Translations under genes and position numbers: made by a program
From: Pyrinomonadaceae bacterium
GTDB taxonomy: Bacteria > Acidobacteriota > Blastocatellia > Pyrinomonadales > Pyrinomonadaceae
Assembly: GCA_044867735.1 (NCBI GenBank)
Contig: JBIOVO010000286.1
Span: 1,666-65,665 of the forward strand
DNA: 64,000 bases
Reading direction: 5' to 3'
Shown: piece by piece, positions 4,854-37,295 of the stretch
Numbering within the stretch: the stretch's first letter is position 1
How the letters are laid out: every line of letters begins with the position of its first letter
Notes under the pieces: generated by a model
Databases searched by the model: none
What the model was told of the DNA's origin: nothing
The model's input: the letters and a program-made list of their open reading frames with translations, nothing else

Positions 4854-4890
4854 GGGTTTGTAATCGTCAAAAGAAGTTCACTGTCCAGCG

Positions 4891-5147: not shown

Positions 5148-5246
5148 CTGTCCAGCCGATCTTCCAGCGAAGCGAAGCGGCAATAATGCGCGACTCTTGA
5201 ATCTCGAGCGTGAGACTCAAGTCATCACAAACTCATTCGTGTTTAC

Positions 5247-5573
5247 TTATGAATTTTGGGAGGATGAACCTGTCTCAGTGGACTGCTGTTCGGGGACGCC
5301 TTGAAAGGCCAGAGTGGTGCGGCAAAACTCTATCCACTCGGAAGTGACGTCACTGAAAATCACGTTCTCGCCAATGAAGATACCGTCGGTCACGGTGAAG
5401 TTCTCCTGCAAGTAGAGATAGTCTGTCTCTTTCAACTCTCTCTGAACTTCCTGAGGCTCGCCGTCGATTTCTTTCCAAACCTTTCTGGCGTTGTGAGCGG
5501 CTTCTTTCCATCCGGGAAACTGCCGGAAAAGTTGAAGCGGGTAAGCCTTACAAATTTTTCCAAGCGTTGACAT
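5247..5573 (-). CDS. hypothetical small protein (108 aa), no family recognised
   Basis: The ATG at 5573 is preceded by GGAGG 7 nt upstream (minus strand ctcttGGAGGattaacgATG). The 154-aa version in the track (start 5711) runs into the hairpin-repeat array and is probably over-extended. The sequence looks like a globular protein (KAYPLQLFRQFPGWKEAAHNARKVWKEIDG...TSEWIEFCRTTLAFQ). It ends in a Ser/Thr-rich tail, PEQQSTETGSSSQNS. Confidence 0.5.
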   Translation of the reverse strand: MSTLGKICKAYPLQLFRQFPGWKEAAHNARKVWKEIDGEPQEVQRELKETDYLYLQENFTVTDGIFIGENVIFSDVTSEWIEFCRTTLAFQGVPEQQSTETGSSSQNS

Positions 5574-5667
5574 CGTTAATCCTCCAAGAGAGTTACTAGA
5601 GTGGTCGTTCATTGAGTTTGAACGACTTCGTTCGAAGACTGAGATCATGACTGGTGACTGCCGCGAA

Positions 5668-5972
5668 GTGCTCCGGAGGAGCAAGAGCCGAGGTGCTCCG
5701 GAGGAGCACAATGTTTATAGCGTTAATGCATTAAGGGTCTGCGCGCTCCAGCGGAGCGCAATGTACTTTGGCACCCACATGCCGCTCCTACGGAGCGGGA
5801 TACATCCATGGATTTGGGGGCTATAAACATGTTGCTCCTTCGGAGCAAGACCCCGAGGTGCTCCGGAGGAGCACGATGTTTATAGCGTTAATGCATTAAG
5901 GGTCTGCGCGCTCCAGCGGAGCGCAATGTACTTTGGGCACTTGGGGGCTAAGTTGTTGCTCCTCCGGAGCAA
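5668..5972. repeat. Array of GCTCC-NNN-GGAGC hairpin units (REP/MITE-like): one solo hairpin, one complete ~156-bp element (5693-5848) and one truncated copy (5858-5972)
   Basis: The complete element is bounded by gtgctccggaggagcacaatgtttatagc (5693-5721) and ggctataaacatgttgctccttcggagcaa (5820-5848), which are inverted. Inside it are the hairpins GCGCTCC-agc-GGAGCGC followed by aatgta, and CCGCTCC-tac-GGAGCGG. The segment 5685-5775 is repeated almost exactly at 5850-5940, with one a/g difference in the TIR. Confidence 0.75.
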
Positions 5973-6015
5973 AGGCCTCGGACAAAGTCGGTGACCGACT
6001 TCTCTTATCGACGGC

Positions 6016-7344: not shown

Positions 7345-7467
7345 GAGACTCCTTAGGTACGGTTCGTCCGCAACGAATGTTCGTCGTTGTGCGAGATTGT
7401 GTGGATTAACGAGGCCGGCCCACAGATGAGAGAAGTTTGAGCCGGTTAATTCTTAGAGTCGGTCTTG

Positions 7468-8184
7468 TTAGGTGATCCAGTTGTCAGCGACAACATCGGC
7501 ATTCGATTCAAGTTCCGGAGGCATCAGCAGGCTCTGAGCAATCTCGCCACTCTCAAGAAAGAGTTCAACGGCCGGGTAGCGAATGGATTCAACGGTGTGA
7601 TTGGTGTGATAGATAAGTCCGCCGCCCGCCGGCAGCCCGATACCGTTAACCACACCGTCGCAAAGCTGGAGCGATTGGCGCAGGTTTCGCCATGCGTTCT
7701 TCTCGTCGTGCGCGTCGACCACAAAGGGGACCAACTTAAAGGTCTCGAAGAGTCGATTCGTCGTCAGTTCGCCTGCCGGCCATCCGAGCCAGCCCAGTTG
7801 GACCGACCCGGCGGAGATACCAATCAGCACTGCGCCGTCCAGATATCTTTTGACCACCGCCTCGCGCACGCCGTTCTTCTTAAAAGCTTCCCAACCTTTC
7901 TGCACGTCTCCGCCTGCCAGGAGGATCAGATCCGCTTCATCGAGAAAGGATGCTTCACCTTTAGATAACTGCGAATTGATCATGCAGCAGTCGCGAACTC
8001 CGATGCCCTCCATCGCCCCTTGAAAGAGTGAGTAGAAAGCCGGGTCGTCGCCATTTGAGGCGCCGATATACGCAGCTTTAGGCTGACGCCCCTCGATCAG
8101 GTTTCGAACTGAATCGAGAAACAATCCGTCTTCGTCCTTCCAGAAAAGCAACTGGCTATCGGCAAAGAGGTAGATCGGTTTCAA
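7468..8184 (-). CDS. Peptidase family S51 (dipeptidase E / cyanophycinase-like) protein
   Basis: This 238-aa protein contains ADLILLAGGDVQKGWEAF...GAVLIGISAGSVQLG...LVPFVVDAHDE. That matches the PepE pattern IVGGGNTFxLL...YIGWSAGAN...INPHF, including the Ser nucleophile context. The start codon is TTG at 8184, 22 nt after the upstream stop. Confidence 0.7.
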   Translation of the reverse strand: MKPIYLFADSQLLFWKDEDGLFLDSVRNLIEGRQPKAAYIGASNGDDPAFYSLFQGAMEGIGVRDCCMINSQLSKGEASFLDEADLILLAGGDVQKGWEAFKKNGVREAVVKRYLDGAVLIGISAGSVQLGWLGWPAGELTTNRLFETFKLVPFVVDAHDEKNAWRNLRQSLQLCDGVVNGIGLPAGGGLIYHTNHTVESIRYPAVELFLESGEIAQSLLMPPELESNADVVADNWIT

Positions 8185-11256: not shown

Positions 11257-12747
11257 CTAGACCAGGACGGCCTCAGGAACTGTTTCACGCCATCTGAAAC
11301 CATCTGCTGAAGGAATGAGACCACCGTCAAAGAGCGGCTGCTCCTCATCGCCCATGGCTCCGGCGTGGGCTTGTCGCTGCATCTGCGTCGCTTCCTCAAC
11401 CAGGCTATCAAGAAAAGCTTCTTTCTCGCCCGAGAAATAAGGAGCTGCGCTATCGTTACTGTTCTGCAGTTGCTCTAACTCACCTTTGATTCTTTCGACT
11501 TGATCGCTTTCCACGATCAGCTCTTCCTGATGCAAGGTAGAGACACCAGCTACCAAACTAACAAATGCTTGTTGATTCGATTGCTGCGTATTGAGGACCT
11601 TGCGTGCGTTCCAGAAGTAGGAGTCTTCACTCTGATGCATGTCGTAAAACGAGGTGAGAAACTCGTAGAAATTCCTGAATTCGCGACGATATCTTTTTTC
11701 GAATTCTTCGAAGCAGCGAGTCTCGTCCATGCCATCGCTGAGAATGGAATTGATCGAACGCGCGGCCAGCAGAGCGGAGTAGGTTGCCAGATGTACGCCG
11801 GAAGAAAAAACCGGATCGATGAAGCAGGCGGCATCGCCTACCAGCACCAGACCAGGCACCCAAAACCGCTCATTGGAATAGGACCAGTCTTTGCGAACGC
11901 GTATTTGACCGTACTGTCCTTCGGTGACGCGCGTCGCCTTGGACAGCATTTCAGATATCTCCGGGCACGAGGCGATGAAGCGGGCCATAGCTTCCTCATG
12001 ACCAGCCTTAAGGAGACTCGCGTTTTCCTTTGACACGACGGCGCCGACGCTGGTGAGCGTAGCGGAAAGCGGAATATACCAAAACCATCCATCCTTAAAA
12101 GCTGCGCAGAAAATGTTGCCGTCACGTGGTGGAGGAAACCGATACCCGTTCTCGTAGTATCCAAACAGCGCCAGGTTCTGAAAGAAATTCGAATAGATTC
12201 GTTCGCCAACTTTTCTGTGAATCTGACTCGTATTGCCGGAAGCATCGACAATGTATTTTGCGTTGGCTTTACGAGCATTGCCGCCGTCATCCAGGAACTC
12301 AACTCCAGTGGCCCGGCCCGCGTCGAAGATAACGTCCTTCACTGAATGCTGCTCGCGCACGTCCACTCCATTGTGAACTGCATTCTTCAGGAGCATGTGA
12401 TCGAACTTTGATCTTTCAACCTGGTACGCATATGCCTGCGGTGTGGTAATCTCGGAGGCGGTGCTGAAGTGGAACGTCCAGGGCTCAGGATTGGTGCCCC
12501 ATTTGAATGTGCCGCCAAGCTTTCGCACGAACCCGGCCTGCTTCAACTCTTCCGACAGTCCGAGGATCTTGCAGACTCCGTGAATCGTCGCCGGCAATAA
12601 CGACTCGCCGATTTGGTAACGAGGGAACGTCTCACGCTCCAGCAGCAGTACTCGATGATTTTGCATTGCGAGTATCGTGGCCACGGTTGATCCCCCTGGA
12701 CCACCACCAATAACGACCACATCAAAATCTTCAACACTTGAATTCAT
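11257..12747 (-). CDS. Flavin-dependent halogenase (PltA/CndH-like, carrier-protein-substrate type)
   Basis: This 496-aa protein has the FAD motif VVIGGGPGGS, the motif GWFWYIP (WxWxIP), FIDPVFSSGVHLA and the conserved Lys context GFVRKLGGTFKWG. An AGGAGAA ribosome-binding site lies upstream of the ATG at 12747. Confidence 0.85.
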   Translation of the reverse strand: MNSSVEDFDVVVIGGGPGGSTVATILAMQNHRVLLLERETFPRYQIGESLLPATIHGVCKILGLSEELKQAGFVRKLGGTFKWGTNPEPWTFHFSTASEITTPQAYAYQVERSKFDHMLLKNAVHNGVDVREQHSVKDVIFDAGRATGVEFLDDGGNARKANAKYIVDASGNTSQIHRKVGERIYSNFFQNLALFGYYENGYRFPPPRDGNIFCAAFKDGWFWYIPLSATLTSVGAVVSKENASLLKAGHEEAMARFIASCPEISEMLSKATRVTEGQYGQIRVRKDWSYSNERFWVPGLVLVGDAACFIDPVFSSGVHLATYSALLAARSINSILSDGMDETRCFEEFEKRYRREFRNFYEFLTSFYDMHQSEDSYFWNARKVLNTQQSNQQAFVSLVAGVSTLHQEELIVESDQVERIKGELEQLQNSNDSAAPYFSGEKEAFLDSLVEEATQMQRQAHAGAMGDEEQPLFDGGLIPSADGFRWRETVPEAVLV

Positions 12748-22934: not shown

Positions 22935-25900
22935 CTAGTTGAGCTTGGAGAAGGACTTGGTGAGACCGGCGGCCAGCTCTTGCACATCAGGCTTCATGAC
23001 GATTGACATGTGATTGCCCGGCACTTCAACAACTTCGACCGGTTGCGCCGAAACCTCGCCCCAACCCAACGTCATGTCGGTTCCGACATCGAAATTGCCT
23101 TTCTGATCTTCACGCATGGCGTGCAGGTAGTAGATGCCGCCCGCAACCGCGCGCAGCGGACGGAAACGAGCTAGTCCGTTCAACTTCTGCGCGGGCGTGT
23201 TCAGTAGATCTTTCGGCGCGATGATGCCTAGCACCACGCAACTCACGACTATCAAGCTAAGCACGCCGGCCAACACGATCGAGGGCAGCACTCCGAAGAA
23301 ACTCAGGCCGCTGAGGACGATTACTAAACTCGCCAGAACCACGGCAGTCCGGTTGGTAATCTTCGACAAGCGCGCAATATTTCGTTCCACCTCAGCAGTC
23401 GTGTGAATAGGTCTGAAGAGCGTGATGGTCCCCGGATAAACTTGCGGTCTATAGGCTTGTGTCGCCTGCTTGAGGGCCTTCATTACATGATAGGTGGCGA
23501 CCAGCTTTTGCTCTTCGACAAACGTTCTGATGAGCCTCGCTTCGCGACCACGCTCAAGCGCGTATTCCACTTGCTTGCCGGATTCAACCTGGCGCAGTTC
23601 CTCAACCGGAAGAATTCGGCCCAGCGTTCTGACGAAGAGAGAGATTAAGTTTGCGTCATCCTTTTCGACCCGCTCTCGATCGGGACTCATTCTGAAGCAG
23701 TCGAGCATGGCGACCACGCCCACTTCCTGGCCCTGCCGCTGGAGTTGTTGGGCCATCTCGAACGCAATGATGCCACCGCTCGAATAGCCACCGACCAGAT
23801 ACGGCCCTTGCGGTTGCTGTTTTCGGATCGCCTCCACATAGAGTGCCGCCATGTCTTCGATTCGATTCAATGGCTCCTGGCCCTCAACTAATCCGGTCGC
23901 CTGGATGCCGTAGAAAGGTTGATCCTCCTCAAAGCACTGCGCGAGGTCATAGAATCCGACCACGTTACCACCGCCGGCATGCACACAATAGAACGGCAGT
24001 TTCGATCCCGAAGGCTTAATGGGCACCAGTGGTGACCACTCGTCATCCTGCTTGTTTTCCTGAATCAGTTCGGCCAGTCCTTTTATTGTGGCGACTGTCA
24101 TCACGTCTGCGAGCTGCAGTTCAACTTCAAACTCTTTCTGAATCTGACCAATCAGGCTAAGCGTCAGCAAAGAGTTGCCGCCGAGTTCGAAAAAGTTATC
24201 CGTGATGCCTATCGGACGAACGTTCAGCATCTCTTCCCAGATCTTCTTCAGCCTGATCTCAGTCGCGTTTCTCGGGGCCACGAATGAACGGACCGAGTAG
24301 CGCATTCCATCCGGCGCCGGAAGAGCACGGCGATCTACCTTGCCGTTCGATGTCAGCGGCAAACTATCCAATTGCACAAACGTCGCCGGCACCATGTATT
24401 CAGGCAGGTACTGCTGAAGATGTCGCTTCAACTGACTGGCGTCGAAGTCTCCGTGACCGTTTTGTCCGTTTGACGGCACGACGTAAGCGACCAACTGCTT
24501 TTCACCATTGGCGTCTGCGCGTGCCGTTACCACGCACTCCCGGATACCCTGATGCTCGCTCAACACCGTCTCAATCTCTTCCGTCTCGACGCGATACCCA
24601 CGAATCTTTACCTGTTGATCGACGCGGCCGGCGAACTCCAGATTGCCGTCTTCGAGATAACGTGCCAGATCGCCCGTGCGGTAGAACCGCTCACCATCGA
24701 TCACCACAAACTTCTCCGCCGTCAGTTCCGGACGATTCAAATAGCCGCGCGCCACGCAACGCCCGCCCAGGTAAAGCTCGCCCACGACACCGACGGGTAC
24801 CAGTTGTCCTTGCTTGTCATAAAGTCGCACGCTCATGTTGGCCAGTGGTTTGCCGAGCGGAGATCTCTTGGGCAGCTGATCGGGCGAGACGTCATAGGCA
24901 GTGCAAATGATGGCGCCTTCAGTCGGTCCATATGCGACCTTCTGCTCAGCCTTTGGAAACACCTGCTGGATCTCACGCAACAGATCTACGGGCACCTGAT
25001 CGCCACCGGTGAAAACTTCGCGAACTCGAGCGCCCGCCGATGATGCCGAGTGATTCTTAAGATGGTTGACGAACTGCCGCATCCATCCCGGAGTCGAATG
25101 CAGGAAAGTCACGTCGCGCAGGATTTCAGTGAGCTGCTTCAGATCCAGAGCTTCCTGCCTCGTGACGATGATTGTGCGGCCGCCTACTAATAAAAGACTC
25201 ATTAACTCGAACAGTGAAATGTCAAACGAGAATGAGGCCATGCAGAGAAGCACATCTGTCGCTACGAAATCGAATACGGATTGAGTAGCCAACAGCGTAT
25301 TACTGAAACTACCCTGCTCAACCATCACTGCCTTGGGTTTGCCCGTTGTCCCAGAGGTGTAAATGAGATATGCCACATCGCTACTCTGGGAAAGATTCTC
25401 GGGGTTTGCCGCAGACTGGAGTGCGACTGTCTCCGCTTCCTTGTCCAGATAAACGATCCGTCCCGAGTGCGGCGGCAATGTGTCACTCAGCCAACTTTGC
25501 GTCAGCACAATAGAGGCTTCAGAATCCGCGAGGACGAAAGTTTGGCGGTCGCGCGGATGTTCGGGATCGAGCGGGACGAGAGTGCCGCCCGCTTTCAAGA
25601 CGGCGATTAAGCTGATGGCGGCATCCAGTGATCGCTCGAAGCAATGAGCAACCCGCACTTCGGGCCCGACACCCAGCGAACGAAGATAATGGGCCAACCT
25701 GTTCGCCTTTTCATTCAGTTCCGAATAGCTGAGTTGTCGATCACCACACGTGAGCGCAACCTGATCCGGCGACTTCGCCGCTTGCGTTTCGAAAAGTTGG
25801 TGGACGCAATCAGCATCGACTGGCGTGGAGTTCGGGCGCCATTGCGTGAGCAATTGCTCGCGCTCTGCGGTCGTCAGCATCGACACTTCGCGGAGCCGTT

Positions 25901-28900
25901 GATCCGGTTTCGTCAGGATGTTCTCGAGCAACACTTCGAGATGGTGCAGAATGCGATCCACAGTTGCATCGTCGAAGCGGGAATCGTAACCGAGCTGCAT
26001 TGCGAGGTTTGGACCAGCAGGCCACGCCATCAGTGAGAGCGGATAACTTGTTCTTTGGAAAAGCTTAACGTCCGGCATCTCAAAGTTTGCGGATCTTGGC
26101 CGGTTAGCCGTCGGACCGTTTACCGGATAGTTCTCAAATGCCAGGATGCTTTCAAACAATGAACCGCGCTGCACTTCGCTCCACGATTGGATTGCCATCA
26201 GCGGAGCGTGCTCATACTGGCGCGCGTCGACCTGCTGTTCCTGCAATTCCTTCAACCAATCGAGGGTCATCTGCTCCGGATCTACCTTGAGGCGAACCGG
26301 CAATGTATTGATGAAGAGACCCAACATGTTCTCCACGCCTTCCAGATCGGCAGGTCGTCCGGAAACCGTCGCACCAAAGACAACGTCTGACTCTCCGGAG
26401 TAGCGGCTTAGCAGAAGACCCCATGCGCCCTGGAACAAAGTGTTCAAGGTCAGTTGATACTGGCGGGCCAGAGATTCGAGCCGCGTGGTCGCTTCCGGCG
26501 AAAGCTTGATTGTTTTTTCTCCCGAGTCGCTGTTCGGTTTCTCATCGGTCAACTTGTAAATACCCAATGAGGTTGGTGAATCGAACCCTTTCAGCAATCC
26601 TCTCCAGAACTCTTCAGCCTTCGTAACCTCCTGCCTTTGCAGCCACGCGATATAATCTCTGAATGGTCGCGTGGTCGCAGGCGGGATATTCTCGCCGCGT
26701 TGCAAAGCGTCATAGAGGGCGGAGAATTCCTTCAGGATGATCGGCATGCACCAGCCGTCCATCAACAAATGATGATGACTCCAAACTACTTGCCACTGAG
26801 CATCGCCCAATTGAATCAAAGCGACTCTCATGAGCGGCGGTTTGGTAAGGTCGAAGCCGCGCGTGCGATCCGCAAGTAAGAACTCTTGAACCTTTCTGGT
26901 CTGCTCTTCCGCCGGAAGCCCGCGAAAGTCGAGCTGCTCCCACGGCAACTCCACCCGGTTAGGCACGATCTGCAAAGGTTGCTTCAAACCGGCCCACACA
27001 AAAGCTGTTCTTAAGATCGGATGCCGGTCGAGGATCTCCTGCCACGCTCGCTTGAAGTTGTCAGAGTTGATTTGTCCGCTGATCGGAGAACTCAATTGAT
27101 TGAAGTAGAGCTGCCCGTCTGGCGCATAGAGGCTATGGAAAAGCATGCCCTGCTGCATCGGCGAGAGTGGATAAAGATCGTCGATGTTTTGCCGGCGCTC
27201 TCTGAGCACTTGATCCAATTCGCTTTGCGACAACCGAGCCAGCGGAAAGTCTGACGGCGTATAACCTCCGGCGTCCTCACTCTGACAATGGCTGATGATT
27301 GCTTCGAGGCAGTTGATGAAGTCCTTCGCCAACTGCTCGATGGTCTCGCGCCGGTGCAGATTTCCGCTGAAGCTCCAACTGAGTTGTAGTTGTCCACCGA
27401 CGACGAGTGAGTTGATGTCGATCAAGTGCTGGCGTGTGCCCTGTTGGCTGCACTGACTGCCGCTTGATTCACGCGCGATACCGAAGACGCCAGTGTCGCC
27501 AAGCATTCCGTCGGTCTGTCCAAGGTAGTTGAAAACAACTTCCGCCGGTGGCTGCGCCTGCAACTGACTCTCGCCGCCCACATACCGAAGCACTCCGTAG
27601 CCGATTCCCTGTCCGGGTATCTCTCGCACCTGCTCCTTTACCTGCTTCAGTACTTCACCGATTCGGTCTTTGCTTCCATGCACTTCCAGCAAGACCGGAT
27701 AGATTGACGTGAACCAACCGACCGTGCGCGAGACGTCAACGCTGTCGCTGATCTGCTCGCGCCCGTGACCTTCCAGATCCACGAGCACTGCGTTCTGCCC
27801 GCTCCACTGTTTGAGCGCCAGAGCAAGCGCGCTAAGTAACACTTCATTGATCTTGGTGTGATACACACCGGGCACTTCCTGTAGCAGTGCCTCTGTATTT
27901 GGGCGGCCCAGGCCCACTACCACTGTCTGCGTGCTGCTCACGAGGTTTTCTCCATCCTCGTAATCGCGCGGCAGGCTTCTCACATGTTTGCGCTCAGCCT
28001 TCTGCCAGTAGTCGATCTGCTGGGCCAGTTCCTCACTGCCCGCATACTCCGTCAGCGCCTGCGACCACTGCTGGAAGGAACTGCTCTTGGGCGGCAACTG
28101 CACTGACTCTCCGTCAGCGAGTGAGCGGTAAGCCTGCTGCAAATCCGCCAAGAGGATGCGCCATGAAACTCCATCCACCACGAGGTGATGACAGACCAGC
28201 ATCAGCCGCGCAGGCCGGCCTTCGCCCAGATCAAAATAGATCACTCGCAGCACTGGACCAGCCGTAAGGTTCAGCTCCGTTTGCGCCTTTGCGGCTGTCG
28301 CTTCGATGACCTTCGATTGCTCGCTCTCGGGCACCGACGTCAGGTCGCAATTAGTAAAACTGATCGGCTCGTCGGCTTCGGCGTGATACTGCCGCCAGCC
28401 TGACTCTGACTGCTCAAAGCGCAACCGCAGCGCATCATGGTGCAACACCAAATGCCGCACCGCTTCAGCCAATAGCACTGGATCAACCGCCTGCCGCAGT
28501 TCCAGTAACATCGACTGGTTGAAGTAATGCGGCTCACTCAACTGTTGCTCGAAGAACCAATGTTGGATCGGTGTCAACGGCGCTTCACCGGTCACCAGAC
28601 CCTGTTCGGCCTGGAACGTGGCACTGGATTTAGCCACGAGCGCGAGTTTGGCGATCGTCTGATGTTGGAAGAGGTCCTTCGGTGTCAGGTGCAGCCCAGC
28701 CTCACGCGCTCGAGCAATAGTCTGAATGCTAAGTATCGAATCGCCGCCGAGTTCGAAGAAGTTGTCGTTAACACCGACACGCTGGAGTCTGAGTACCTCG
28801 GCCCAGATCTTCGTGAGGATCTCTTCGGCCGGTGTACGCGGCGCGACGTATTCATCTTTGCTTTCCAGTCGAACACCATCCGGACCGGGGAGTGCTTTCA

Positions 28901-31900
28901 GATCCACTTTTCCATTCGGAGTCAGCGGAAACGCGTCCATGATCACGAAGTTCGACGGGACCATGTAGTCCGGGAGTTTGTCACTCGCGAAAGCGCGTAA
29001 ACGAGAGACCAGGTTACGCGTCCATTTCACTTGCAACGGATCGCTGGCATACGTTTGCCACGTCAGGGGCATGAGGCTCCCTGACTGCGGGGACTCATTT
29101 TGAGTCGTGATCTTCGGCGCTGATTCAGGCCGTCTGAAAACTACGTCAAAGCTTCCATCGGCTATGTCCAACGCCCAGCTCACATCCACCTGAAACTGTA
29201 ATTCCGAACCCAGTGCGCGAAAGTCATCGGGCTCCTCGCCACTTGTTGCTACCGTTCGAAGCGTTTCCCGAATCTCGGCTACTCTGTCTGGCCCATTCGG
29301 ATCTGCGATCAGTTCAATCAGTTTTGCATCGGCCAATACACGAGCATTTGGTACTCCGCGCAGACCGAGCCCCTCGATACCGTTCGCGGCCAGGGTTTGC
29401 CGGATCGCCGGCAGCGTCAAGCCCTGCTCTTCCCAATCCAACCACTCGATTTCGTTACTTTCACTTTCATTCCCGATGTGCAGGACCACGTCGTAGCGAA
29501 ACTTCGTCAGCTCGTTGTGATGAGGTCCACGCTTCAACTGGATCTCAACCCGACCGATATTTGGAAGGTACTGTTTCAGAGCGTGGAAGAACGCCGGATC
29601 GATTACGAGTTCTTCTTCCTGACTGAGATACCGCTTGGTCCGCTCGCGCAATTCAGACTTTGAGACCGAATCCAAAGCCTGCGACAATTGCACCGAGGCA
29701 TGAAATGTTTCCAGCAGCGGCAGGCTGCGAATGTCGCCGATGAAAATGTGTCCGCCCGGCCGCACTGACTTGACGGCGTTTTCCACTACCTGGACGAAAT
29801 AGTCGATCCCCGGGAAATATTGGGCCACTGAGTTGATGATGACCGTGTCGAACTTCTCCGTCTCGCCGTCGTCGTAATCCGCCGCGTCCTTCCTGACGAG
29901 AGTGACGTGAGAGAAGTCGTCTTCCGACTTGTCCATCACCTGCTGAACCTTCCGCAGGCTCGCGACTGAAAAATCCGTGCCGTGATAACTCTCGCAATGC
30001 GGCGCTATTCGGAACAACAACAGACCCGTTCCGCATCCGATCTCCAGCACGCTCTGCGGGCGCAATGCGAGAATGCGATCGACTGTCTGGTTAACCCAAA
30101 CTTGCATCTCTTCGGCCGCGATTGGTTGATTCGTATAGCTCGAATTCCAGCCGATGATGTTGAACGTCTCATCCGATTGCGTTGAAGGCTGGGCGTAGGT
30201 CTCATCAAAGATCATCTGCCATTCCGAAACCTGATCCTCAGACCATTGGTTTCCGAGATCCTCATCAGACTGGTCCTGCAATCGAGACGTCGGCACGACG
30301 TAAGACACCAATCGTTTATCGCCAGGCTGATCTTCGCGAGCCACAACCAACGCATCGCGCAACGCAGGATGCTGCCTGAGAACAGACTCGATCTCTCCCA
30401 ACTCGATGCGGAAGCCGCGAATCTTTACCTGCTGATCGATACGTCCGAGATACTCGAGTTCGTCTTTGCCTATCCAGCGCGCCAGGTCCCCGGTCCGGTA
30501 AAGGCGTTCGCCGGGAACGGCACTAAACGGATGCGGAATAAAGCGTTCGGCAGTAACATCCGGGCGATTGAGATAGTTGCGCGCCAGACCATCGCCGCCG
30601 ACATACATCTCACCAGCCACACTCTCGGGCGCCAGCTCGAAATTCGAATCGAGCAGATAAGTTTCAAGATCAGGAATCGGACAACCGATAACACTCTTGC
30701 CGGCCTGGTCCAAATCGCTTGAAGACAACGGACGATAGGTGACGTGGACCGTGGTTTCGGTGATGCCGTACATGTTGACCAGTTGGGGTTTGCTGTCACC
30801 ATGGCGATCGAGCCACGGCCTGAGACTTTCAAGTTCCAGTGCCTCACCGCCGAAGATAACGAATCGCAGGCTCAGCTCATCCGTTGACGGCGCGGCTTCA
30901 TCGGCGCGTATCAGTTGTCTGAAGGCCGATGGTGTTTGATTGAGGACGGTGACCTTCTCAGTGCGCAGAAGTTCGTGGAAGGAATCCGGCGAACGGCTGA
31001 CCCAGTGCGGAACGATTACGAGGCGGCCGCCGTACAACAGCGCACCCCAAATCTCCCAGACCGAAAAGTCGAAAGCATATGAATGGAAGAATGACCAGAC
31101 GTCATTCTCGTCGAAGTGGAACCAGGCATCAGTCGCGCGGAACAGGCGAATGACGTTGTCGTGCTGGATCAAGACGCCTTTTGGTTTACCTGTGGAACCG
31201 GAGGTGTAGATCACGTACGCCAGATTTTCAGGAGTCCCTACTTGTACAGGATTATCTTCGGGCTCAACTGCAATATCGGCCCAATCAGCATCCACGCGGA
31301 TAGTCGTGATCGAGATCTCGGGCAAGAGTTCAACCAGCTTCTCCTGCGTCAAGAGAATCGACAATTGCGCATCCTCGAGCATGAAAGCCAAACGCTCTCG
31401 CGGATACGACGGATCCATCGGCACGTAAGCTCCGCCGGCTTTGAGGATGCCCAACACGCTCACGATCATTTCGACGGAGCGCTCCATCAGGACACCGCAC
31501 AAACTATCCGGGCCAATGCCTGATCGCATGAGATGGCGTGCCAGTTGATTGGCGCGGCGATTCAACTCGGCATAAGTAATGTTCTGATCTTCGAATGTCA
31601 GGGCCACTGCGTCGGGGCTGCGATCCACAACCCTTTCAAAAAGATCGGACAAACAAACATCGGCGCCGTAAGTTTCCGGCTTGGAATTGGAGTTAGCGAG
31701 GAGTTGCCTGCGCTCACCTTCTGTCAGCAGTGGCAACTCAGACAGTTTGAGTTCGGGATTTGCTACCGCTGCTTCGAGCAGGCTTTCGAAGTGGCCCAAC
31801 ATTCGCACGATGGTAGACCGCTCAAACAGATCGGTGTTGTACTCGATGGTTCCCATCAACGTCTCGGCTTCGGCCCAGAAGAAGCTCAGATCAAACTTCG

Positions 31901-34900
31901 ACGTCGTACTTTCCACGTCAACCGGTTTAATCGTCAGGCCGGTCGAGACGGAGATGTCCTGCGGCAGGTTCTGCAAGATGAACATCACCTGGAAGAGTGG
32001 CTGGCGACTCAGATCCCGTTCGGGTTGCAACTCTTCAACCAGTTGTTCGAAAGGCACATCCTGATGCGCATACGCGCCGAGACAAACCTCGCGCACTCGC
32101 GCAATCATCTGTCGCACAGTGAGATCGCCATCGACTTTGGTTCGCAGCACCAGTGCATTCACAAAGAACCCGATCAGACCTTCGATCTCACTCCGGGTCC
32201 GGTTCGCTATGGGAGAGCCCGTGACGATGTCAGTTTGGCCGGAATAGCGATACAAAAGCGTCTGGAAGATCGCGAGCAGGCACATGTAGATCGTGCTGCC
32301 TTGCTTGTAACTGAGCGCGCGCAGTTTTTCCGTTAACTCCTGGCTGAGGGTGATTGATTCAGTGGCCCCGCGGAATTGCTGCACTGCGGGACGTGGTTTG
32401 TCGATCGGCAGTTCGAGTTGATCCGGGATATTCGCCAGTTGCTTGCGCCAGTAGTTGAGTTGCTGCTCCAATGCCGCACCTTGAAGCCAGCCTCTTTGCC
32501 AGGTCGCAAAATCCGCGTATTGGATCTTGAGTTCGGGAAACGGGGAAGCCTCGCCTCGGCTGAAAGCATCGTAGAGGACACCCAATTCTTTTGTTAGCAC
32601 TGTGAAAGACCAGCCGTCGCCGATGATGTGGTGCATCGTAAACAACACCACATGCTCTGACTCATCCAGCCGCAAAACCTTTACTCGTATCTGCGGGACC
32701 TGGCTCAGATCGAACGGTTCGTGCGCTTCCGCCAACGCCAGCCGCGCAACTTCCGCTTCTCGCTCATCAGGCGGAAGTGACCTCAGATCTATAACCGGTA
32801 TCTCGAACGGATATGGGTCGCAGATTTCCTGTCTGCCCTGTCCGTCCTTCAACACAAAGCGGGTACGCAACGACTCATGCCGCCGAATGATCTCTCGTAA
32901 GCTCTTCTCAAATACGTCGACTTGCAGTGGGCCGGCAAGACGCAAGACAGCCGGCATGTTGTAGGCGGTGCTAAGAGGTTCGAGTTGGTTGAGAAACCAG
33001 AGCCGCTGCTGCGCAAATGAGAGTGGCAGCGGTTCATCGCGCGACACGACGGTGATCGGCGGAGCGCTGGTGCCGTGCTCGGATGTCAGTTCGGCCTCAA
33101 TGCGTGCACTCAAAGTGGCGATCGTTTGGTTCTCGAAAATCGCCCGCAGTGGTATCTCGAGTTGAAAGCTCTCGCGAATGCGCGAGATCACTTGAGTAGC
33201 AAGTAACGAGTGTCCGCCCAACTCGAAGAAATTGTCGTGGATGCCGACTCGCTCCACCTTCAACACCGCGATCCAGGTGGCGACGAGGATTTCCTGAACG
33301 AGCGTTTGCGGCTCAGCGAAATCTGCTGCACCGCCGAAGCCAGGCAACTCAGGCGCGGGCAGCGCTCGGCGGTCAATCTTGCCGTTAGCAGTCAGCGGCA
33401 GATCTTCCAGCAGCACAAACGACGTCGGAATCATGTAATCAGGCAACGACTTCTGAAGATGTGCCCGCAGCAGGAAGGGTTCAAGGGCCGCACGCTCTTC
33501 GCGTACCGGAATGGTGTCGTTCGCAAACAACTGCGCATGATACGGACTCTTCCGATAGTCTGGACGATGATGGAACGATTCATGTTTGAAATCGATGGCT
33601 TCACCATTCTGCCGGACTATCGTGCCTTCAATCGTGTAATCAGGATTAAGCCCGTTCTCGCAAACGGCGCCGCGACACACCAGCTTGACCACGTCCCCGG
33701 CAGTTACTTCAAGGCCCGGATGAAAGACCGGGAAGTAGACAGGAAACCAGGAAGACCTGCCCTTCATAATGTCGATCACTTCGTCCTCTGCGGTGTGCAG
33801 ATTCAGCCACAGCAGAAAGCCGTTCAGGTTGGCGTCCTGAGTGATCACGAGCTCTTCGTGACGGCAGAAGTTCTGCTCGGCGTGTCGGCGGAAGTCGAGA
33901 TCCTCAAATACGCCGCTGGTTGAGACGATGTTTGACGAAGGGAAATTCTTGATGCACAACCTGAGGTCGAATTTGTAACCGGTCTGAGCAAAGATCTGCT
34001 CGACGTAGTGAGCGGCCGTACTGGTGAAAGCCGGATTGTGCAACAGCTCATCCGGAAGAGAAACGGCGACGATTTTCGTGACGCTTCTCTCGGGAATTAT
34101 GACGGCGTCTTCCTTAAGCAGTCTCCTCGACTTGTTGATGATGTGCGCGGCTCCCTGCGCGCCGCCAATGCTCTCCACTACTTCCGAGACACTAACATCA
34201 GCTTTTTCCGGTAACTCGATTTTTGTCGCATCGCCGTGCAGCACGACGATCTGCTCTTGCAGTCCCAGGGCCCGAACCTGTTCACTGGCTGCGCGAAACG
34301 ACTCCTCGACGATGTCTATCGCATAGACTCTTTTGGCGCCGGCTTCCGCGCAAAACCTCGCCTGAATGGCATCACGTCCGGTACCGATGTCTACTACTAT
34401 CTTGTCCTTGACGGCCCTTTCAATTGCGACTTTATAACTGTCGTTTCGTTCTTCGTCATTCGTCAGTCCGTAGTAAACAAGCTCGTCAAAGACAAAGAAC
34501 TCTCCGATAGACGGCCACAATAGAATCCCTTCATCGACGTTCGTAGCTACGTTTTCGGGAACTACATACGCCACGAGTTGCTTTTCACCCGGACGATCCG
34601 CCCGAGCCATCACCACACACTCTTTGACGCCGGGGAGTTCGTTAATCACCGATTCGATCTCTTCCACTTCGACACGGTATCCACGAATCTTTACCTGCTG
34701 GTCCACACGGCCGATAAACTCCAGATTGCCGTCCTCGAGATAACGCGCCAGGTCTCCCGTGCGGTAGAACCGCTCGCCATCGATAACCACAAACTTCTCA
34801 GCCGTCAGCTCCGGATGCCCTAAATAACCACGCGCCACGCTCTGCCCACCAAGGTAGATCTCACCCGCGACGCCGATCGGTACGAGTTGTCCCTGCTTGT

Positions 34901-37295
34901 CATAAAGCCGGACGTTCATGTTGGCGAGCGGCTTGCCGATGATGTCGCCCGGCACAATCTCGTCATGCGCCAACTTGTAGTTGGTGCACATGATCGTGCC
35001 TTCCGTTGGTCCATAACCGATATAGCGCTGGGCCTGCGGAAACACCTCTTTCATCTTCTTCATTACATCCGCGGTAACCACGTCTCCGCCGACAAACAGT
35101 TTGCGAATTCGGTAACGATGCTCGATCCCTTTCTCTCTTACGTAGTCAAGAAAGTGGGACATGACGAACGGCAGCAGGTGTACGAAGGTGGTGTCTTCCA
35201 ACAACTTCGCGAACTTCTCCTGATCGAGCACATCCTGCTTGCGGATGACGCGCGCACTGCCGCCGGCGAGCAACGGACTCAGGAACTCGAAGATGGAAAT
35301 GTCGAACGAGAACGACGCCACGCAGGGGATCACATCGTCAGCGCCGATTCCAAACTGAATCTGACTGGCGAGGAGTGAATTCGTAAGATTTCCATGATCG
35401 ATCATGACGCCTTTGGGCGTGCCGGTCGTTCCGGAAGTGTAGATGATGTAAGCAAGATCCTCTGCGTCGCTGATGTGTTCGAGATTGTCTTCGCTATGTC
35501 GAGCGATGGCCGGCCAATCAGCATCGATACAAATAGACTCGATCTCTTGTTCCGGTAATAACTCCAGTAGCTCTTTCTGAGTAAGCAGAATCTGAGCGGA
35601 AGAGTCATTCAGCATGAAAGCAATCCTGTCCCGCGGATACTCAGGATCGACTGGCAGGTAAGCGCCGCCGGCTTTAAGAACAGCCAGGATTCCAACGACC
35701 ATGTCGAAGGAGCGTTGCATCATGATGCCGACCAGTACTTCTGGTCCAACGCCGGCCGATCGCAAGTGGCGGGCGAGTTGGTTGGCCCTGCGGTTTAGTT
35801 CGCCATAGGTCAGTGTTTGACCTTGAAAAATCAAAGCCGTTGCATCAGGGGTTCGTCCTGCTTGCGTTTCGAACAAATGCTGGACGCAGTCCTGGCTCGG
35901 AAGCTCAGTGGCAGTCTGATTCCAATCGACCACCAACTGCTGCCGCTCGGCTTCCGTCAGTAACGAGATCCGCGAGATCCGTTGCATGGGATCGCGCGCC
36001 ATCTGGTCCAGGATGTTGCCGAAGTGTTCAAGCAGCCGCTGAATAGCCTGCCCCTGGAATCGATGAGCGTCGTAGGTGATTCCGGTGGACCAGTGCTGAT
36101 CGATTCCGAATCTGATCGTGATGGGATAATTTGTGGTTTGGTACCGGCCAACTTGCGGTGCGTTTGCACCACTATTCGATTCACCATTTTTGGGAGAAGC
36201 GCTGCCGGGGAAAGTCTCAAATACCAGGAGACTTTCAAATAACGGAACGCCTCGCTCTACGTCACTCCAGCCCTGCACCTCCACCAGCGGGCTGTGCTCG
36301 TACTGTCGCATCTCGGTCTGTTCGACCTGTAAACGCTTCAGCCATGGTCCTACCTTCTCTTCGGTGTCAACCTGCACGCGTACCGGAAGAGTATTGATGA
36401 ACAGCCCCACCATCTGATCAACCCCCTCCAGCTCGGTGGGCCGGCCTGAAACGGTCGCTCCGAAGAGTACGTCTGTCTCACCGCTGTACCGCCACATCAC
36501 GAGCGCCCAGGCTCCCTGAATCAGCGTGTTCATTGTCACCTGCTGATAGCGTGCCAGCGCTTCCAGACCACGACTCGTCTGGTCGCTAAGCATGAGACTC
36601 TTTATTGCGTAATCCGGTGCGCCACCATTTTGGTGGGGCGTTTCCGGAATGCCTAGTTGGGTTGGCGAGGTAAAGCCCTGGAGTCTCTTTCTCCAGTAAG
36701 CCTCGGCGGCATTTAGATCTTGCTTTTGCAGCCAACTGATGTAATCGCGATATGGCCGCGGCTGTGAGAGTTCCAGTTGCCTGCCGTTGGAATAGGCTTC
36801 ATAAAAAGTAAAGACCTCATTCAACAGCAGCAAGGAACCCCAGCCATCAAGCAGGATGTGATGAAAGCTCCAGACAAAGTGCCAGGCGTCATCCGCAAGA
36901 CGCATCAAGGCGAAGCGCATCAACGGAGGTTCTGAAAGCTCGAAGCCGCGGGCGCGATCAGCTACGACATAAGCTTCCAGTTGTTGCTGCTGATCTTCCG
37001 GCGCCATGTCACGCCAGTCATCTACTTCCCACGGCAGGTCCACTCGTCGACGAACGATTTGGAGTGGCTTGTCGCGTCGTTCCCAGAGGAATGCAGTGCG
37101 GAGAATCGGATGGCGCTCGACTACCTGTGCCCAGGCTCGCCGGAAAGCTTCAACGTTCATATCCGCCTGAATCGTCCAGCTCGCCTGATCGAAGTACACC
37201 TCTGACTGAGGAGCCAGCAGGGTGTGAAAGAGCATTCCCTGCTGCATGTGTGAGAGCGGATAGATTGCTTCGATGTTGATATTCGATGTGCTCAT
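22935..37295 (-). CDS. NRPS, 3 modules + TE: C(DCL-type)-A[PRMT-fold MT insert]-T / C(LCL-type)-A[N-MT insert]-T-E / C(DCL-type)-A-T-TE
   Basis: This 4786-aa protein carries these motifs in order: YPLSHMQQGMLFH, HHILLDGWG, YIIYTSGTTGTPKG, FFELGGHSL, LPLSFAQQRLWFL, MHHIIGDGWS, YVIYTSGSTGKPKG, VLEIGCGTG, FFELGGDSI, HHLVVDGVSWRI, YPLSPMQQGMLFH, HHHLLMDGWC, YLIYTSGTTGKPKA, FFELGGNSL and GGYSSGG. Pocket codes read by eye are DIFHFGGIMK, DFWNIGMVHK (Thr) and DIFHFGAIIK. Confidence 0.95.
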   Translation of the reverse strand: MSTSNINIEAIYPLSHMQQGMLFHTLLAPQSEVYFDQASWTIQADMNVEAFRRAWAQVVERHPILRTAFLWERRDKPLQIVRRRVDLPWEVDDWRDMAPEDQQQQLEAYVVADRARGFELSEPPLMRFALMRLADDAWHFVWSFHHILLDGWGSLLLLNEVFTFYEAYSNGRQLELSQPRPYRDYISWLQKQDLNAAEAYWRKRLQGFTSPTQLGIPETPHQNGGAPDYAIKSLMLSDQTSRGLEALARYQQVTMNTLIQGAWALVMWRYSGETDVLFGATVSGRPTELEGVDQMVGLFINTLPVRVQVDTEEKVGPWLKRLQVEQTEMRQYEHSPLVEVQGWSDVERGVPLFESLLVFETFPGSASPKNGESNSGANAPQVGRYQTTNYPITIRFGIDQHWSTGITYDAHRFQGQAIQRLLEHFGNILDQMARDPMQRISRISLLTEAERQQLVVDWNQTATELPSQDCVQHLFETQAGRTPDATALIFQGQTLTYGELNRRANQLARHLRSAGVGPEVLVGIMMQRSFDMVVGILAVLKAGGAYLPVDPEYPRDRIAFMLNDSSAQILLTQKELLELLPEQEIESICIDADWPAIARHSEDNLEHISDAEDLAYIIYTSGTTGTPKGVMIDHGNLTNSLLASQIQFGIGADDVIPCVASFSFDISIFEFLSPLLAGGSARVIRKQDVLDQEKFAKLLEDTTFVHLLPFVMSHFLDYVREKGIEHRYRIRKLFVGGDVVTADVMKKMKEVFPQAQRYIGYGPTEGTIMCTNYKLAHDEIVPGDIIGKPLANMNVRLYDKQGQLVPIGVAGEIYLGGQSVARGYLGHPELTAEKFVVIDGERFYRTGDLARYLEDGNLEFIGRVDQQVKIRGYRVEVEEIESVINELPGVKECVVMARADRPGEKQLVAYVVPENVATNVDEGILLWPSIGEFFVFDELVYYGLTNDEERNDSYKVAIERAVKDKIVVDIGTGRDAIQARFCAEAGAKRVYAIDIVEESFRAASEQVRALGLQEQIVVLHGDATKIELPEKADVSVSEVVESIGGAQGAAHIINKSRRLLKEDAVIIPERSVTKIVAVSLPDELLHNPAFTSTAAHYVEQIFAQTGYKFDLRLCIKNFPSSNIVSTSGVFEDLDFRRHAEQNFCRHEELVITQDANLNGFLLWLNLHTAEDEVIDIMKGRSSWFPVYFPVFHPGLEVTAGDVVKLVCRGAVCENGLNPDYTIEGTIVRQNGEAIDFKHESFHHRPDYRKSPYHAQLFANDTIPVREERAALEPFLLRAHLQKSLPDYMIPTSFVLLEDLPLTANGKIDRRALPAPELPGFGGAADFAEPQTLVQEILVATWIAVLKVERVGIHDNFFELGGHSLLATQVISRIRESFQLEIPLRAIFENQTIATLSARIEAELTSEHGTSAPPITVVSRDEPLPLSFAQQRLWFLNQLEPLSTAYNMPAVLRLAGPLQVDVFEKSLREIIRRHESLRTRFVLKDGQGRQEICDPYPFEIPVIDLRSLPPDEREAEVARLALAEAHEPFDLSQVPQIRVKVLRLDESEHVVLFTMHHIIGDGWSFTVLTKELGVLYDAFSRGEASPFPELKIQYADFATWQRGWLQGAALEQQLNYWRKQLANIPDQLELPIDKPRPAVQQFRGATESITLSQELTEKLRALSYKQGSTIYMCLLAIFQTLLYRYSGQTDIVTGSPIANRTRSEIEGLIGFFVNALVLRTKVDGDLTVRQMIARVREVCLGAYAHQDVPFEQLVEELQPERDLSRQPLFQVMFILQNLPQDISVSTGLTIKPVDVESTTSKFDLSFFWAEAETLMGTIEYNTDLFERSTIVRMLGHFESLLEAAVANPELKLSELPLLTEGERRQLLANSNSKPETYGADVCLSDLFERVVDRSPDAVALTFEDQNITYAELNRRANQLARHLMRSGIGPDSLCGVLMERSVEMIVSVLGILKAGGAYVPMDPSYPRERLAFMLEDAQLSILLTQEKLVELLPEISITTIRVDADWADIAVEPEDNPVQVGTPENLAYVIYTSGSTGKPKGVLIQHDNVIRLFRATDAWFHFDENDVWSFFHSYAFDFSVWEIWGALLYGGRLVIVPHWVSRSPDSFHELLRTEKVTVLNQTPSAFRQLIRADEAAPSTDELSLRFVIFGGEALELESLRPWLDRHGDSKPQLVNMYGITETTVHVTYRPLSSSDLDQAGKSVIGCPIPDLETYLLDSNFELAPESVAGEMYVGGDGLARNYLNRPDVTAERFIPHPFSAVPGERLYRTGDLARWIGKDELEYLGRIDQQVKIRGFRIELGEIESVLRQHPALRDALVVAREDQPGDKRLVSYVVPTSRLQDQSDEDLGNQWSEDQVSEWQMIFDETYAQPSTQSDETFNIIGWNSSYTNQPIAAEEMQVWVNQTVDRILALRPQSVLEIGCGTGLLLFRIAPHCESYHGTDFSVASLRKVQQVMDKSEDDFSHVTLVRKDAADYDDGETEKFDTVIINSVAQYFPGIDYFVQVVENAVKSVRPGGHIFIGDIRSLPLLETFHASVQLSQALDSVSKSELRERTKRYLSQEEELVIDPAFFHALKQYLPNIGRVEIQLKRGPHHNELTKFRYDVVLHIGNESESNEIEWLDWEEQGLTLPAIRQTLAANGIEGLGLRGVPNARVLADAKLIELIADPNGPDRVAEIRETLRTVATSGEEPDDFRALGSELQFQVDVSWALDIADGSFDVVFRRPESAPKITTQNESPQSGSLMPLTWQTYASDPLQVKWTRNLVSRLRAFASDKLPDYMVPSNFVIMDAFPLTPNGKVDLKALPGPDGVRLESKDEYVAPRTPAEEILTKIWAEVLRLQRVGVNDNFFELGGDSILSIQTIARAREAGLHLTPKDLFQHQTIAKLALVAKSSATFQAEQGLVTGEAPLTPIQHWFFEQQLSEPHYFNQSMLLELRQAVDPVLLAEAVRHLVLHHDALRLRFEQSESGWRQYHAEADEPISFTNCDLTSVPESEQSKVIEATAAKAQTELNLTAGPVLRVIYFDLGEGRPARLMLVCHHLVVDGVSWRILLADLQQAYRSLADGESVQLPPKSSSFQQWSQALTEYAGSEELAQQIDYWQKAERKHVRSLPRDYEDGENLVSSTQTVVVGLGRPNTEALLQEVPGVYHTKINEVLLSALALALKQWSGQNAVLVDLEGHGREQISDSVDVSRTVGWFTSIYPVLLEVHGSKDRIGEVLKQVKEQVREIPGQGIGYGVLRYVGGESQLQAQPPAEVVFNYLGQTDGMLGDTGVFGIARESSGSQCSQQGTRQHLIDINSLVVGGQLQLSWSFSGNLHRRETIEQLAKDFINCLEAIISHCQSEDAGGYTPSDFPLARLSQSELDQVLRERRQNIDDLYPLSPMQQGMLFHSLYAPDGQLYFNQLSSPISGQINSDNFKRAWQEILDRHPILRTAFVWAGLKQPLQIVPNRVELPWEQLDFRGLPAEEQTRKVQEFLLADRTRGFDLTKPPLMRVALIQLGDAQWQVVWSHHHLLMDGWCMPIILKEFSALYDALQRGENIPPATTRPFRDYIAWLQRQEVTKAEEFWRGLLKGFDSPTSLGIYKLTDEKPNSDSGEKTIKLSPEATTRLESLARQYQLTLNTLFQGAWGLLLSRYSGESDVVFGATVSGRPADLEGVENMLGLFINTLPVRLKVDPEQMTLDWLKELQEQQVDARQYEHAPLMAIQSWSEVQRGSLFESILAFENYPVNGPTANRPRSANFEMPDVKLFQRTSYPLSLMAWPAGPNLAMQLGYDSRFDDATVDRILHHLEVLLENILTKPDQRLREVSMLTTAEREQLLTQWRPNSTPVDADCVHQLFETQAAKSPDQVALTCGDRQLSYSELNEKANRLAHYLRSLGVGPEVRVAHCFERSLDAAISLIAVLKAGGTLVPLDPEHPRDRQTFVLADSEASIVLTQSWLSDTLPPHSGRIVYLDKEAETVALQSAANPENLSQSSDVAYLIYTSGTTGKPKAVMVEQGSFSNTLLATQSVFDFVATDVLLCMASFSFDISLFELMSLLLVGGRTIIVTRQEALDLKQLTEILRDVTFLHSTPGWMRQFVNHLKNHSASSAGARVREVFTGGDQVPVDLLREIQQVFPKAEQKVAYGPTEGAIICTAYDVSPDQLPKRSPLGKPLANMSVRLYDKQGQLVPVGVVGELYLGGRCVARGYLNRPELTAEKFVVIDGERFYRTGDLARYLEDGNLEFAGRVDQQVKIRGYRVETEEIETVLSEHQGIRECVVTARADANGEKQLVAYVVPSNGQNGHGDFDASQLKRHLQQYLPEYMVPATFVQLDSLPLTSNGKVDRRALPAPDGMRYSVRSFVAPRNATEIRLKKIWEEMLNVRPIGITDNFFELGGNSLLTLSLIGQIQKEFEVELQLADVMTVATIKGLAELIQENKQDDEWSPLVPIKPSGSKLPFYCVHAGGGNVVGFYDLAQCFEEDQPFYGIQATGLVEGQEPLNRIEDMAALYVEAIRKQQPQGPYLVGGYSSGGIIAFEMAQQLQRQGQEVGVVAMLDCFRMSPDRERVEKDDANLISLFVRTLGRILPVEELRQVESGKQVEYALERGREARLIRTFVEEQKLVATYHVMKALKQATQAYRPQVYPGTITLFRPIHTTAEVERNIARLSKITNRTAVVLASLVIVLSGLSFFGVLPSIVLAGVLSLIVVSCVVLGIIAPKDLLNTPAQKLNGLARFRPLRAVAGGIYYLHAMREDQKGNFDVGTDMTLGWGEVSAQPVEVVEVPGNHMSIVMKPDVQELAAGLTKSFSKLN
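22938..24047 (-). other. Terminal thioesterase domain carrying an ~85-aa insertion with two predicted membrane helices (23214-23348)
   Basis: TE motifs are LPFYCVHAGGGNVVGFYDLA, GGYSSGG (Ser at about 23781-23783), VVAMLD and VPGNHMSIV. An insertion lies between ITLFRP and LGWGE. It is TAVVLASLVIVLSGLSFFGVLPSIVLAGVLSLIVVSCVVLGIIAP (45 uninterrupted hydrophobic or small residues, with Pro mid-way), plus a basic stretch. Confidence 0.7.
28990..30290 (-). other. Canonical NRPS N-methyltransferase (M) domain inserted between A8 and A9 of module 2 (Thr code)
   Basis: Motifs are VLEIGCGTGLLLF (about 30011-30051), FDTVIINSVAQYFP and GGHIFIGDIRS. The insert is followed by LPDYMVPSNFVIMDAFPLTPNGKVD (about 28958). 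Confidence 0.85.
33450..34560 (-). other. PRMT-fold (protein-arginine-methyltransferase-like, Rossmann + beta-barrel) domain inserted between A8 and A9 of module 1
   Basis: This covers about residues 912-1282. By-eye alignment to PRMT1 gives these pairs:
- LTNDEERNDSYKVAI to MLKDEVRTLTYRNSM
- KDKIVVDIGTGRDAI to KDKVVLDVGSGTGIL
- CAEAGAKRVYAID to AAKAGARKVIGIE
- IVVLHGDATKIELPEKADVSVSEVVESIGG to [28 protein letters not shown]
- LKEDAVIIPERSVTKIVAVSLPD to [21 protein letters not shown]
- SSWFPVYFP to THWKQTVFY. Confidence 0.65.

Follow-up and report, generated by a model that had tools for sequence, protein, structure and literature searches.

In several non-ribosomal peptide synthetases (NRPSs), among them KtzH, ColG and TioN, a methyltransferase (MT) nested in an adenylation (A) domain methylates the side-chain oxygen or sulfur of the carrier-bound residue, and some of these side-chain MTs are inserted between motifs a2 and a3. 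Here, we analyze a nested MT that occupies the a8–a9 site of the first A domain (A1) in a 4786-amino-acid (aa) NRPS of a Pyrinomonadaceae bacterium. The gene lies in a stretch of 64,000 nucleotides, called the window below (GenBank assembly GCA_044867735.1, contig JBIOVO010000286.1, positions 1,666 to 65,665). The insert (window positions 33447..34550, minus strand; aa 916-1283, 368 aa) has, by sequence, profile and AlphaFold2 (AF2)/Foldseek comparisons, the fold of the protein arginine methyltransferases (PRMTs). It shares with KtzH, ColG and TioN the concept of a nested MT which would act on the side chain of a carrier-bound residue. We propose, with a probability of about 0.5, that the insert is an active S-adenosylmethionine (SAM)-dependent MT that O-methylates the phenolic hydroxyl of an arylglycine-like residue, of the 4-hydroxyphenylglycine (Hpg) type or, failing that, of the Tyr type, on the carrier domain T1.

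The closest described systems are cyanobacterial. Lyngbyapeptin B from Moorena bouillonii contains N,O-dimethyl-Tyr, and its synthetases LynB3 and LynB5 each combine a backbone N-MT with an MT "similar to arginine methyltransferases" (about 30%) (PMC10127204). The LynB3 O-MT domain was called PRMT-like in 2023, distinct from the TioS-like backbone N-MT, and a role on the Tyr hydroxyl was postulated for it (PMC10127204). By this published description, both systems have a PRMT-like MT embedded in an NRPS A domain; however, in LynB3 a single Tyr-specific A domain contains the two MTs, whereas the PRMT-like MT stands alone here and its host has the specificity code DIFHFGGIMK. The second system is the floridanemamide (fma) assembly line, in which one module was predicted to incorporate N-methyl-homotyrosine and nuclear magnetic resonance (NMR) established O-methyl-homotyrosine (PMC13252402). 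Our locus L011 is from the floridanemamide producer, Floridaenema flaviceps BLCC-F50, and its MT is 53% identical to the insert over residues 11-367. The A domains of L011 follow the order Thr, Thr, the MT-bearing domain, Pro and Pro; because this module order matches the residue order of floridanemamide, the MT can be tied to phenol O-methylation. The fma MT occupies the same a8–a9 site and is homologous along its full length, but its host carries the homotyrosine (Hty) code DLGFTGCVTK, and it shows the majority signature of the family (Gly 126, Glu 132, W-L-P) where this copy has E126, Q132 and W-F-P. The insert is thus an unusual variant of a widespread, already noticed family linked to the O-methylation of tyrosine-like residues, and not a new kind of enzyme. 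The structural observation in the initial annotation stands; the novelty that it implied is overstated, since the family is large and its resemblance to PRMTs has been published.

The insert has a PRMT fold

Sequence, profile and structure searches agree that the insert resembles type I PRMTs along its full length, as the initial annotation had proposed. First, a single-sequence phmmer search of the PDB matched PRMT6 (E=3.7e-15), and PRMT1-9, CARM1 and Hsl7 account for almost all of the 60 top-scoring chains. Second, a family profile of 24 members reached 1.5e-27 against the PDB, with the alignment extending into the β-barrel. When the C-terminal half was profiled on its own (16 sequences), the only matches were PRMT9, PRMT5 and PRMT2 (best E 8e-6). 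Finally, the AF2 model of the insert [predicted local distance difference test (pLDDT) 92.2, predicted TM-score (pTM) 0.89] was submitted to Foldseek, and the top 50 matches are all PRMTs (PRMT6, CARM1, PRMT2, PRMT8; E 6e-24 to about 1e-23, TM-score 0.63-0.77, 320-366 aligned columns) and not members of the NRPS M-domain family. These results confirm the PRMT fold, a Rossmann SAM-binding domain followed by a β-barrel, over the full length of the insert. Pfam returned only generic class I MT models and a sub-threshold PRMT5 match, and NCBIfam gave nothing over its cut-offs.

We compared the active-site motifs of the insert with those of the PRMTs. SAM-binding motif I, VVDIGTGRD (insert residues 52-60; 34371..34397, minus), and the post-I strand, RVYAID (residues 74-79; 34314..34331, minus), align with VLDVGAGTG and RVYAVE of PRMT6, the SAM-binding motif pair of a PRMT. 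G56 and G58 are invariant in the family, the position of the third glycine is Asp or Glu throughout it, and the terminal acid of post-I is Glu or Asp in 146 of the 147 relatives. With motif I and post-I intact, the SAM-binding residues, whose loss would have spoken against an MT, are present. The double-E loop is more divergent. Its equivalent, SEVVESIGGAQGA (34149..34187, minus), was located by a gap-free profile alignment to SEWMGYGLLHES of PRMT6 and by residue frequencies. The family consensus SEivgsigsseG pairs with the same PRMT6 segment without gaps, so that the family overall keeps both double-E glutamates. This copy does not have both; E123 is kept, an extra Glu appears at 126, and the second Glu is replaced by Gln (Q132). 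Position 132 is Glu in 137/147 relatives, and Gln is found in this copy, its orthologues and a few scattered others (5/147). The equivalent of the THW loop, SSWFPVYFPVF (33723..33755, minus), follows from the C-terminal-half profile, in which eeysWlPv aligns with EETCWEQ and EASHWKQ of PRMT9. The loop Trp (W268) is kept in 143/147 relatives; in place of the His, this copy has Ser and the family as a whole has Cys or Ser, so the loop differs from that of the PRMTs. All of the motifs that had been quoted by eye (VVDIGTGRD, RVYAID, SEVVESIGG at 122-130, IIPERS, and SSWFP at 266-270) were recovered.

In summary, the insert shares with type I PRMTs (PRMT6, CARM1, PRMT2, PRMT8) the two-domain fold, an N-terminal YFxxY-like helix, motif I, the post-I acid, the first double-E Glu and the THW-loop Trp. 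It differs from them in its identity of ~20%, in being embedded in an NRPS domain rather than free-standing, in the Gln and Ser that replace the second Glu and the THW His, and in its host pocket, which is not Arg-like. The targets of its product-linked relatives are also different, being a phenolic oxygen and not a guanidino nitrogen.

The host protein (22935..37295, minus; from the open reading frame (ORF) list and its translation, Pfam domains, and the positions of the His-motif, A10, carrier (T) and thioesterase (TE) motifs) is the last in the run of minus-strand NRPS genes of the window. Its architecture, from Pfam and motif positions, is C-A(PRMT-like MT)-T-C-A(N-MT)-T-E-C-A-T-TE, where C and E are condensation and epimerization domains. 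The A1 core (a1-a8; aa 456-915; 34551..35930, minus) was assigned by Pfam AMP-binding and PDB A-domain matches, with its code read from alignments, and its A8 motif QVKIRGYRVEVEEIE (aa 867-881; 34653..34697, minus) ends 34 aa before the insert. The rest of the A1 C-terminal subdomain, located by its motifs, follows the insert (33366..33446, minus; A9 LPDYMIP, A10 NGKIDR at aa 1304), and T1 (GGHSL; aa 1337-1399; 33099..33287, minus; Pfam PP-binding) comes next. The insert is bounded by ..KQLVAYVVPEN and LPDYMIPTSF, and A9 directly adjoins its C-terminal end. The ~370-aa insertion at A8-A9 that had been placed at 33450-34560 (aa 912-1282) is therefore found at the classical a8-a9 site, with its limits refined to aa 916-1283.

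The same protein allows a direct comparison with a canonical insert. The second A domain, A2, has the Thr code DFWNIGMVH and carries a backbone N-MT (aa 2338-2773; 28977..30284, minus) with the motifs VLEIGCGTG and NSVAQYFP, which matches the TioS M domain (PDB 5WMM) at 7.2e-52 and Methyltransf_12 at 1.2e-20. A BLASTP comparison of the two inserts gave no significant match (E 0.36), and 5WMM is absent among the PDB matches listed for the PRMT-like insert. The two inserts belong to different families, as had been suggested from their motifs. The insertion geometry is nevertheless that of TioS A4a-M4-A4b, with the a8-a9 site and the MT nested in the A C-terminal subdomain, and 5WMM is the third-best Foldseek match of the whole A-MT-A-T model (976 columns). 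The MT itself comes from another family, and the overall TM-score of 0.44-0.47 is low, with a root-mean-square deviation of 18.7.

A widespread family and a separate subclade

The search for homologous interrupted A domains that the initial annotation had called for revealed a large family. An exhaustive HMMER search of 1.84 billion representatives gave at least 598 clusters (50% identity) at E<=1e-30, and in nearly all of them the MT lies within proteins of 1000-5800 aa. For the most part, these are NRPSs of cyanobacteria, Acidobacteriota, Chloroflexota and Bacteroidota with the MT nested in an A domain. The insert shares 43-60% identity with hundreds of NRPS-embedded relatives over >90% of its length. 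A pattern scan with one genome per species confirmed at least 256 relatives; the counts of L-numbered loci below refer to the best 80 of these. The 80 loci span cyanobacteria, Acidobacteriota, Chloroflexota, Bacteroidota, Herbaspirillum, Methylobacter and Thiomargarita, and the acidobacterial relatives include Pyrinomonadaceae at 85% identity. The A8 motif is located 34-74 aa upstream of the MT in 66/80 loci. At five of the 80, a canonical N-MT directly follows the PRMT-like MT in the same A domain, which is a double interruption as in LynB3. In about nine cases, the MT is a stand-alone protein of ~440 aa that carries a TubC-type docking domain. The Nostocales forms (P0002-P0015; L027, L029, L030, L044, L048-L050) have ~430-450 aa, carry this docking domain at the N-terminus and lie between NRPS genes; they look like a trans-acting form of the MT. 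The MT of L045, L057, L060, L072 and L074 is found in ORFs of 1900-3600 aa that have no preceding A8 motif or readable A-domain code, and its host there differs, being possibly a polyketide synthase or another domain. One protein, P0060 (2785 aa), has two PRMT-like copies, of which one shows the divergent loop CALVGNMGSSDGC. The host codes of L081 and L084, which are frameshifted long-read contigs, are partly readable.

Regarding the hosts, about half of 190 A domains carry Tyr codes (DASTIAAVCK, DASTVAAVCK, DGTITAEVM) or DLGFTGCVTK. Basic-type codes (DVENVGAITK and similar) occur in 18/122 representative hosts, and the Gln-type code DAWQFGLID is also present. In the MTs of basic-type hosts (DVENVGAITK, DVEDIGAITK), KGFS or HGFS takes the place of HGDAT, and the loop sequence is SEIIGTIGSSEG; examples are L018, L022, L032, L046, L052, L059, L061, L064, L073 and L079, and P0102, P0109, P0127 and P0146. 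Such members are candidates for true side-chain N-methylation. Four columns separate the Tyr-hosted from the basic-hosted MTs, too few to classify this copy.

In a neighbour-joining tree, the insert falls into a clade of 20 out of 148 representatives. The subclade is marked by an acidic residue at 126, where 127/147 relatives have Gly, and by W-F-P, where 111/147 have W-L-P. Its identity to the Tyr-hosted majority is 51%, compared with 64% within the majority. A D[IA]xH.G-class code is found in 12 of the 13 members with a readable host. Codes of this class (DIFHFGLII, DILHLGLII, DAWHLGHVV, DAWHLGCTF) occur in about 14/122 representative hosts, and the exact code DIFHFGGIMK recurs only in the close orthologues L001, L002 and P0058. 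This is neither a Tyr nor an Hty code. The pocket that it describes is hydrophobic, with one His, and offers a basic side chain no acidic partner, which agrees with the initial annotation, where it was described as hydrophobic or aromatic-like rather than Arg-like and its target was called unclear. A search with the pocket segment of A1 gave nothing informative on specificity. A 671-bit PDB match to LgrA, which would have made A1 a Gly-type domain, was rejected, as its score merely adds up two ordinary A-domain matches (332 and 339 bits).

NRPS-embedded PRMT-like MTs are already known; particular to this locus are the subclade, the acidic residue at 126, W-F-P, Q132 and the DIFHFGGIMK host. 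Although the family is frequent in NRPS genes, neither Pfam nor NCBIfam has a model dedicated to it, and its nearest PDB entries are eukaryotic PRMTs, with no solved structure of the family. A fold best known from eukaryotic PRMTs serves here for small-molecule tailoring on a bacterial assembly line, and the double-E loop is for the most part kept. A family MT was taken for a backbone N-MT where the product has an O-methyl group (PMC13252402). Recognizing the family and its subclades would improve the sequence-based structure prediction of non-ribosomal peptides. What this copy adds is a natural variant with Gln for Glu, together with an uncharacterized combination of MT and host pocket, in a cluster from an acidobacterium.

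The methyl acceptor and competing explanations

In the proposed reaction, A1, with its pocket DIFHFGGIMK, would adenylate its amino acid and load T1, and the phosphopantetheine arm of T1 would deliver the thioester-bound residue to the nested MT. The MT would then use SAM to methylate a side-chain heteroatom rather than the α-amine. The likeliest acceptor would be the phenolic oxygen of an arylglycine- or Tyr-like residue, because of the family analogy and of a halogenase in the same cluster. This CndH-like halogenase, which is flavin adenine dinucleotide-dependent (11257..12747, minus; 3E1T at E 3.1e-183, Pfam Trp_halogenase), is encoded 177 bp upstream of the gene for a stand-alone A-T protein (8207..11080, minus) whose code, read from alignments, is DIFHFGLIIK. 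CndH chlorinates a tyrosyl intermediate bound to a carrier; the close match to it and the position of the gene suggest that a carrier-bound aromatic residue is chlorinated. The third A domain of the 4786-aa NRPS, A3, has a code of the same type as A1 and the stand-alone A-T protein (DIFHFGAIIK), and none of the other eight A domains of the window has an aromatic-type code; thus, no visible domains other than the DIFHFG ones are candidates for supplying an electron-rich aromatic ring. The D[IA]xH.G class presumably resembles arylglycine codes such as DIFHLGLLCK, for which literature confirmation was sought and none was found.

Several points weigh against this proposal. The second Glu of the double-E loop is essential in PRMT1, and its replacement by Gln in this copy, at a position that is Glu in 137/147 relatives, leaves room for a different acceptor. 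The separation of the subclade (51% versus 64% identity) likewise means that the acceptor may differ from that of the majority. We take DIFHFGGIMK to resemble Gly and Glu codes as well, and no published code equal or close to it was found in the literature. Genes for Hpg biosynthesis were seen neither in the window nor in the flanks of the subclade relatives P0064, P0075, P0078, P0070 and P0079, which consist mostly of NRPS genes. Finally, each domain of the whole A-MT-A-T model folds well (pLDDT 86.3), but the pTM of 0.61 makes the relative placement of the MT and T1 unreadable, and the inter-domain geometry of the model is uncertain.

In the strongest alternative, the MT would act on another side-chain nucleophile, for example an amide, amine or imidazole nitrogen, of a non-phenolic residue, and the acid-enriched subclade (E123, E126) would have evolved for this new acceptor. 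The 20 of 148 representatives with their own signature are found almost only in D[IA]xH.G hosts and not in Tyr hosts, the basic-type and Gln-type hosts elsewhere in the family make non-phenol acceptors plausible, Hpg genes were not seen in the window or beside subclade relatives, and the chemistry would be nearer to that of true PRMTs. On the other hand, the sole product-linked relatives are O-methyltransferases (PMC13252402; PMC10127204), the hydrophobic pocket has a single His and no acid for a basic side chain, and the halogenase beside an A domain of the same type argues for an electron-rich aromatic ring. We regard this alternative as possible, at perhaps half the weight of phenol O-methylation. 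A broader idea, to be held just as tentatively, is that the whole 20-member subclade may be a functionally distinct branch of PRMT-fold NRPS MTs for a residue class other than Tyr/Hty, either arylglycine or a non-phenolic side chain, and that this Gln copy may have altered chemistry, for example, nitrogen methylation or an acceptor that needs no deprotonation.

The insert is unlikely to be a remnant with impaired catalysis or a purely structural role, even though its second double-E Glu is Gln and the same cluster contains an example of such decay. The stand-alone A-T protein carries a degenerate PRMT-like paralogue of the insert (8564..9670, minus; 31% identity over 314 aa, E 2.5e-42), while the ORF of its host remains open. 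In this paralogue, however, GTG of motif I has become CPD, GDAT and the loop Trp are gone, and the double-E loop reads TDFLGDIGGGKGL, so that it looks quite different from the insert, in which the SAM-binding motifs are all intact and Q132 is conserved in three orthologues of 85-87% identity. Selection on the MT points the same way. The ratio of nonsynonymous to synonymous substitution rates (dN/dS) of the MT is 0.105 and 0.115 against two 85%-identical Pyrinomonadaceae orthologues, and the flanking domains give 0.128 and 0.096 (A core) and 0.080 and 0.104 (second C domain, C2) against the same sequences. Judged by these ratios, the MT is under purifying selection equal to that on the surrounding catalytic domains, and a dN/dS of ~0.11 indicates that the domain is functional. 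No close relatives of the degenerate insert were found by a scan of metagenome contigs.

Backbone α-N-methylation, which the a8-a9 site shared with canonical N-MT domains and the former N-methyl-Hty prediction for the floridanemamide module (PMC13252402) could suggest, is very improbable, because the same protein uses an unrelated TioS-type N-MT for the backbone one module later, the floridanemamide relative gives O-methyl and not N-methyl (PMC13252402), and the two MT types that share one A domain at five loci would be redundant. The 53% identity to the fma MT in its O-methyl-homotyrosine module and the double-MT loci (5/80) also agree with the earlier expectation of a target atom other than the α-amine, and phenol O-methylation on T1 remains our preferred assignment.

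Surrounding gene cluster

Upstream of the 4786-aa NRPS are four more NRPS genes (37311-63993, minus), of which the first is truncated at the end of the window. The residues suggested by their codes are Gly, Ala-like, Val-like, acidic-type, basic-type, Val/Ile-like and Gly, so that the line has at least ten modules and starts outside the window; a scan with the upstream NRPS edge for an extension of the cluster past the window end gave only relatives of <=57% identity. Taken together, the acidobacterial cluster is likely to make a halogenated, methylated peptide.

At the other end of the window, positions 1-5200 contain no ORF >150 aa on either strand, although the GC content is normal, and Rfam and tandem-repeat searches of positions 1-8000 gave nothing; decayed genes may be present there. 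An 862-aa protein (12825-15413, minus) is encoded within the NRPS cluster, with the halogenase on one side and a type II thioesterase on the other; it has only the N-terminal (glutamylation-type) domain of the lantibiotic dehydratases and no NCBIfam match. Lastly, the TE domain of the 4786-aa NRPS is split by a strongly hydrophobic stretch of ~50 aa (aa 4649-4700; 23166-23345, minus). This stretch resembles two transmembrane helices (Kyte-Doolittle >1.8 in 19-aa windows) and separates the Pfam TE match from the GNH motif at the C-terminal end.

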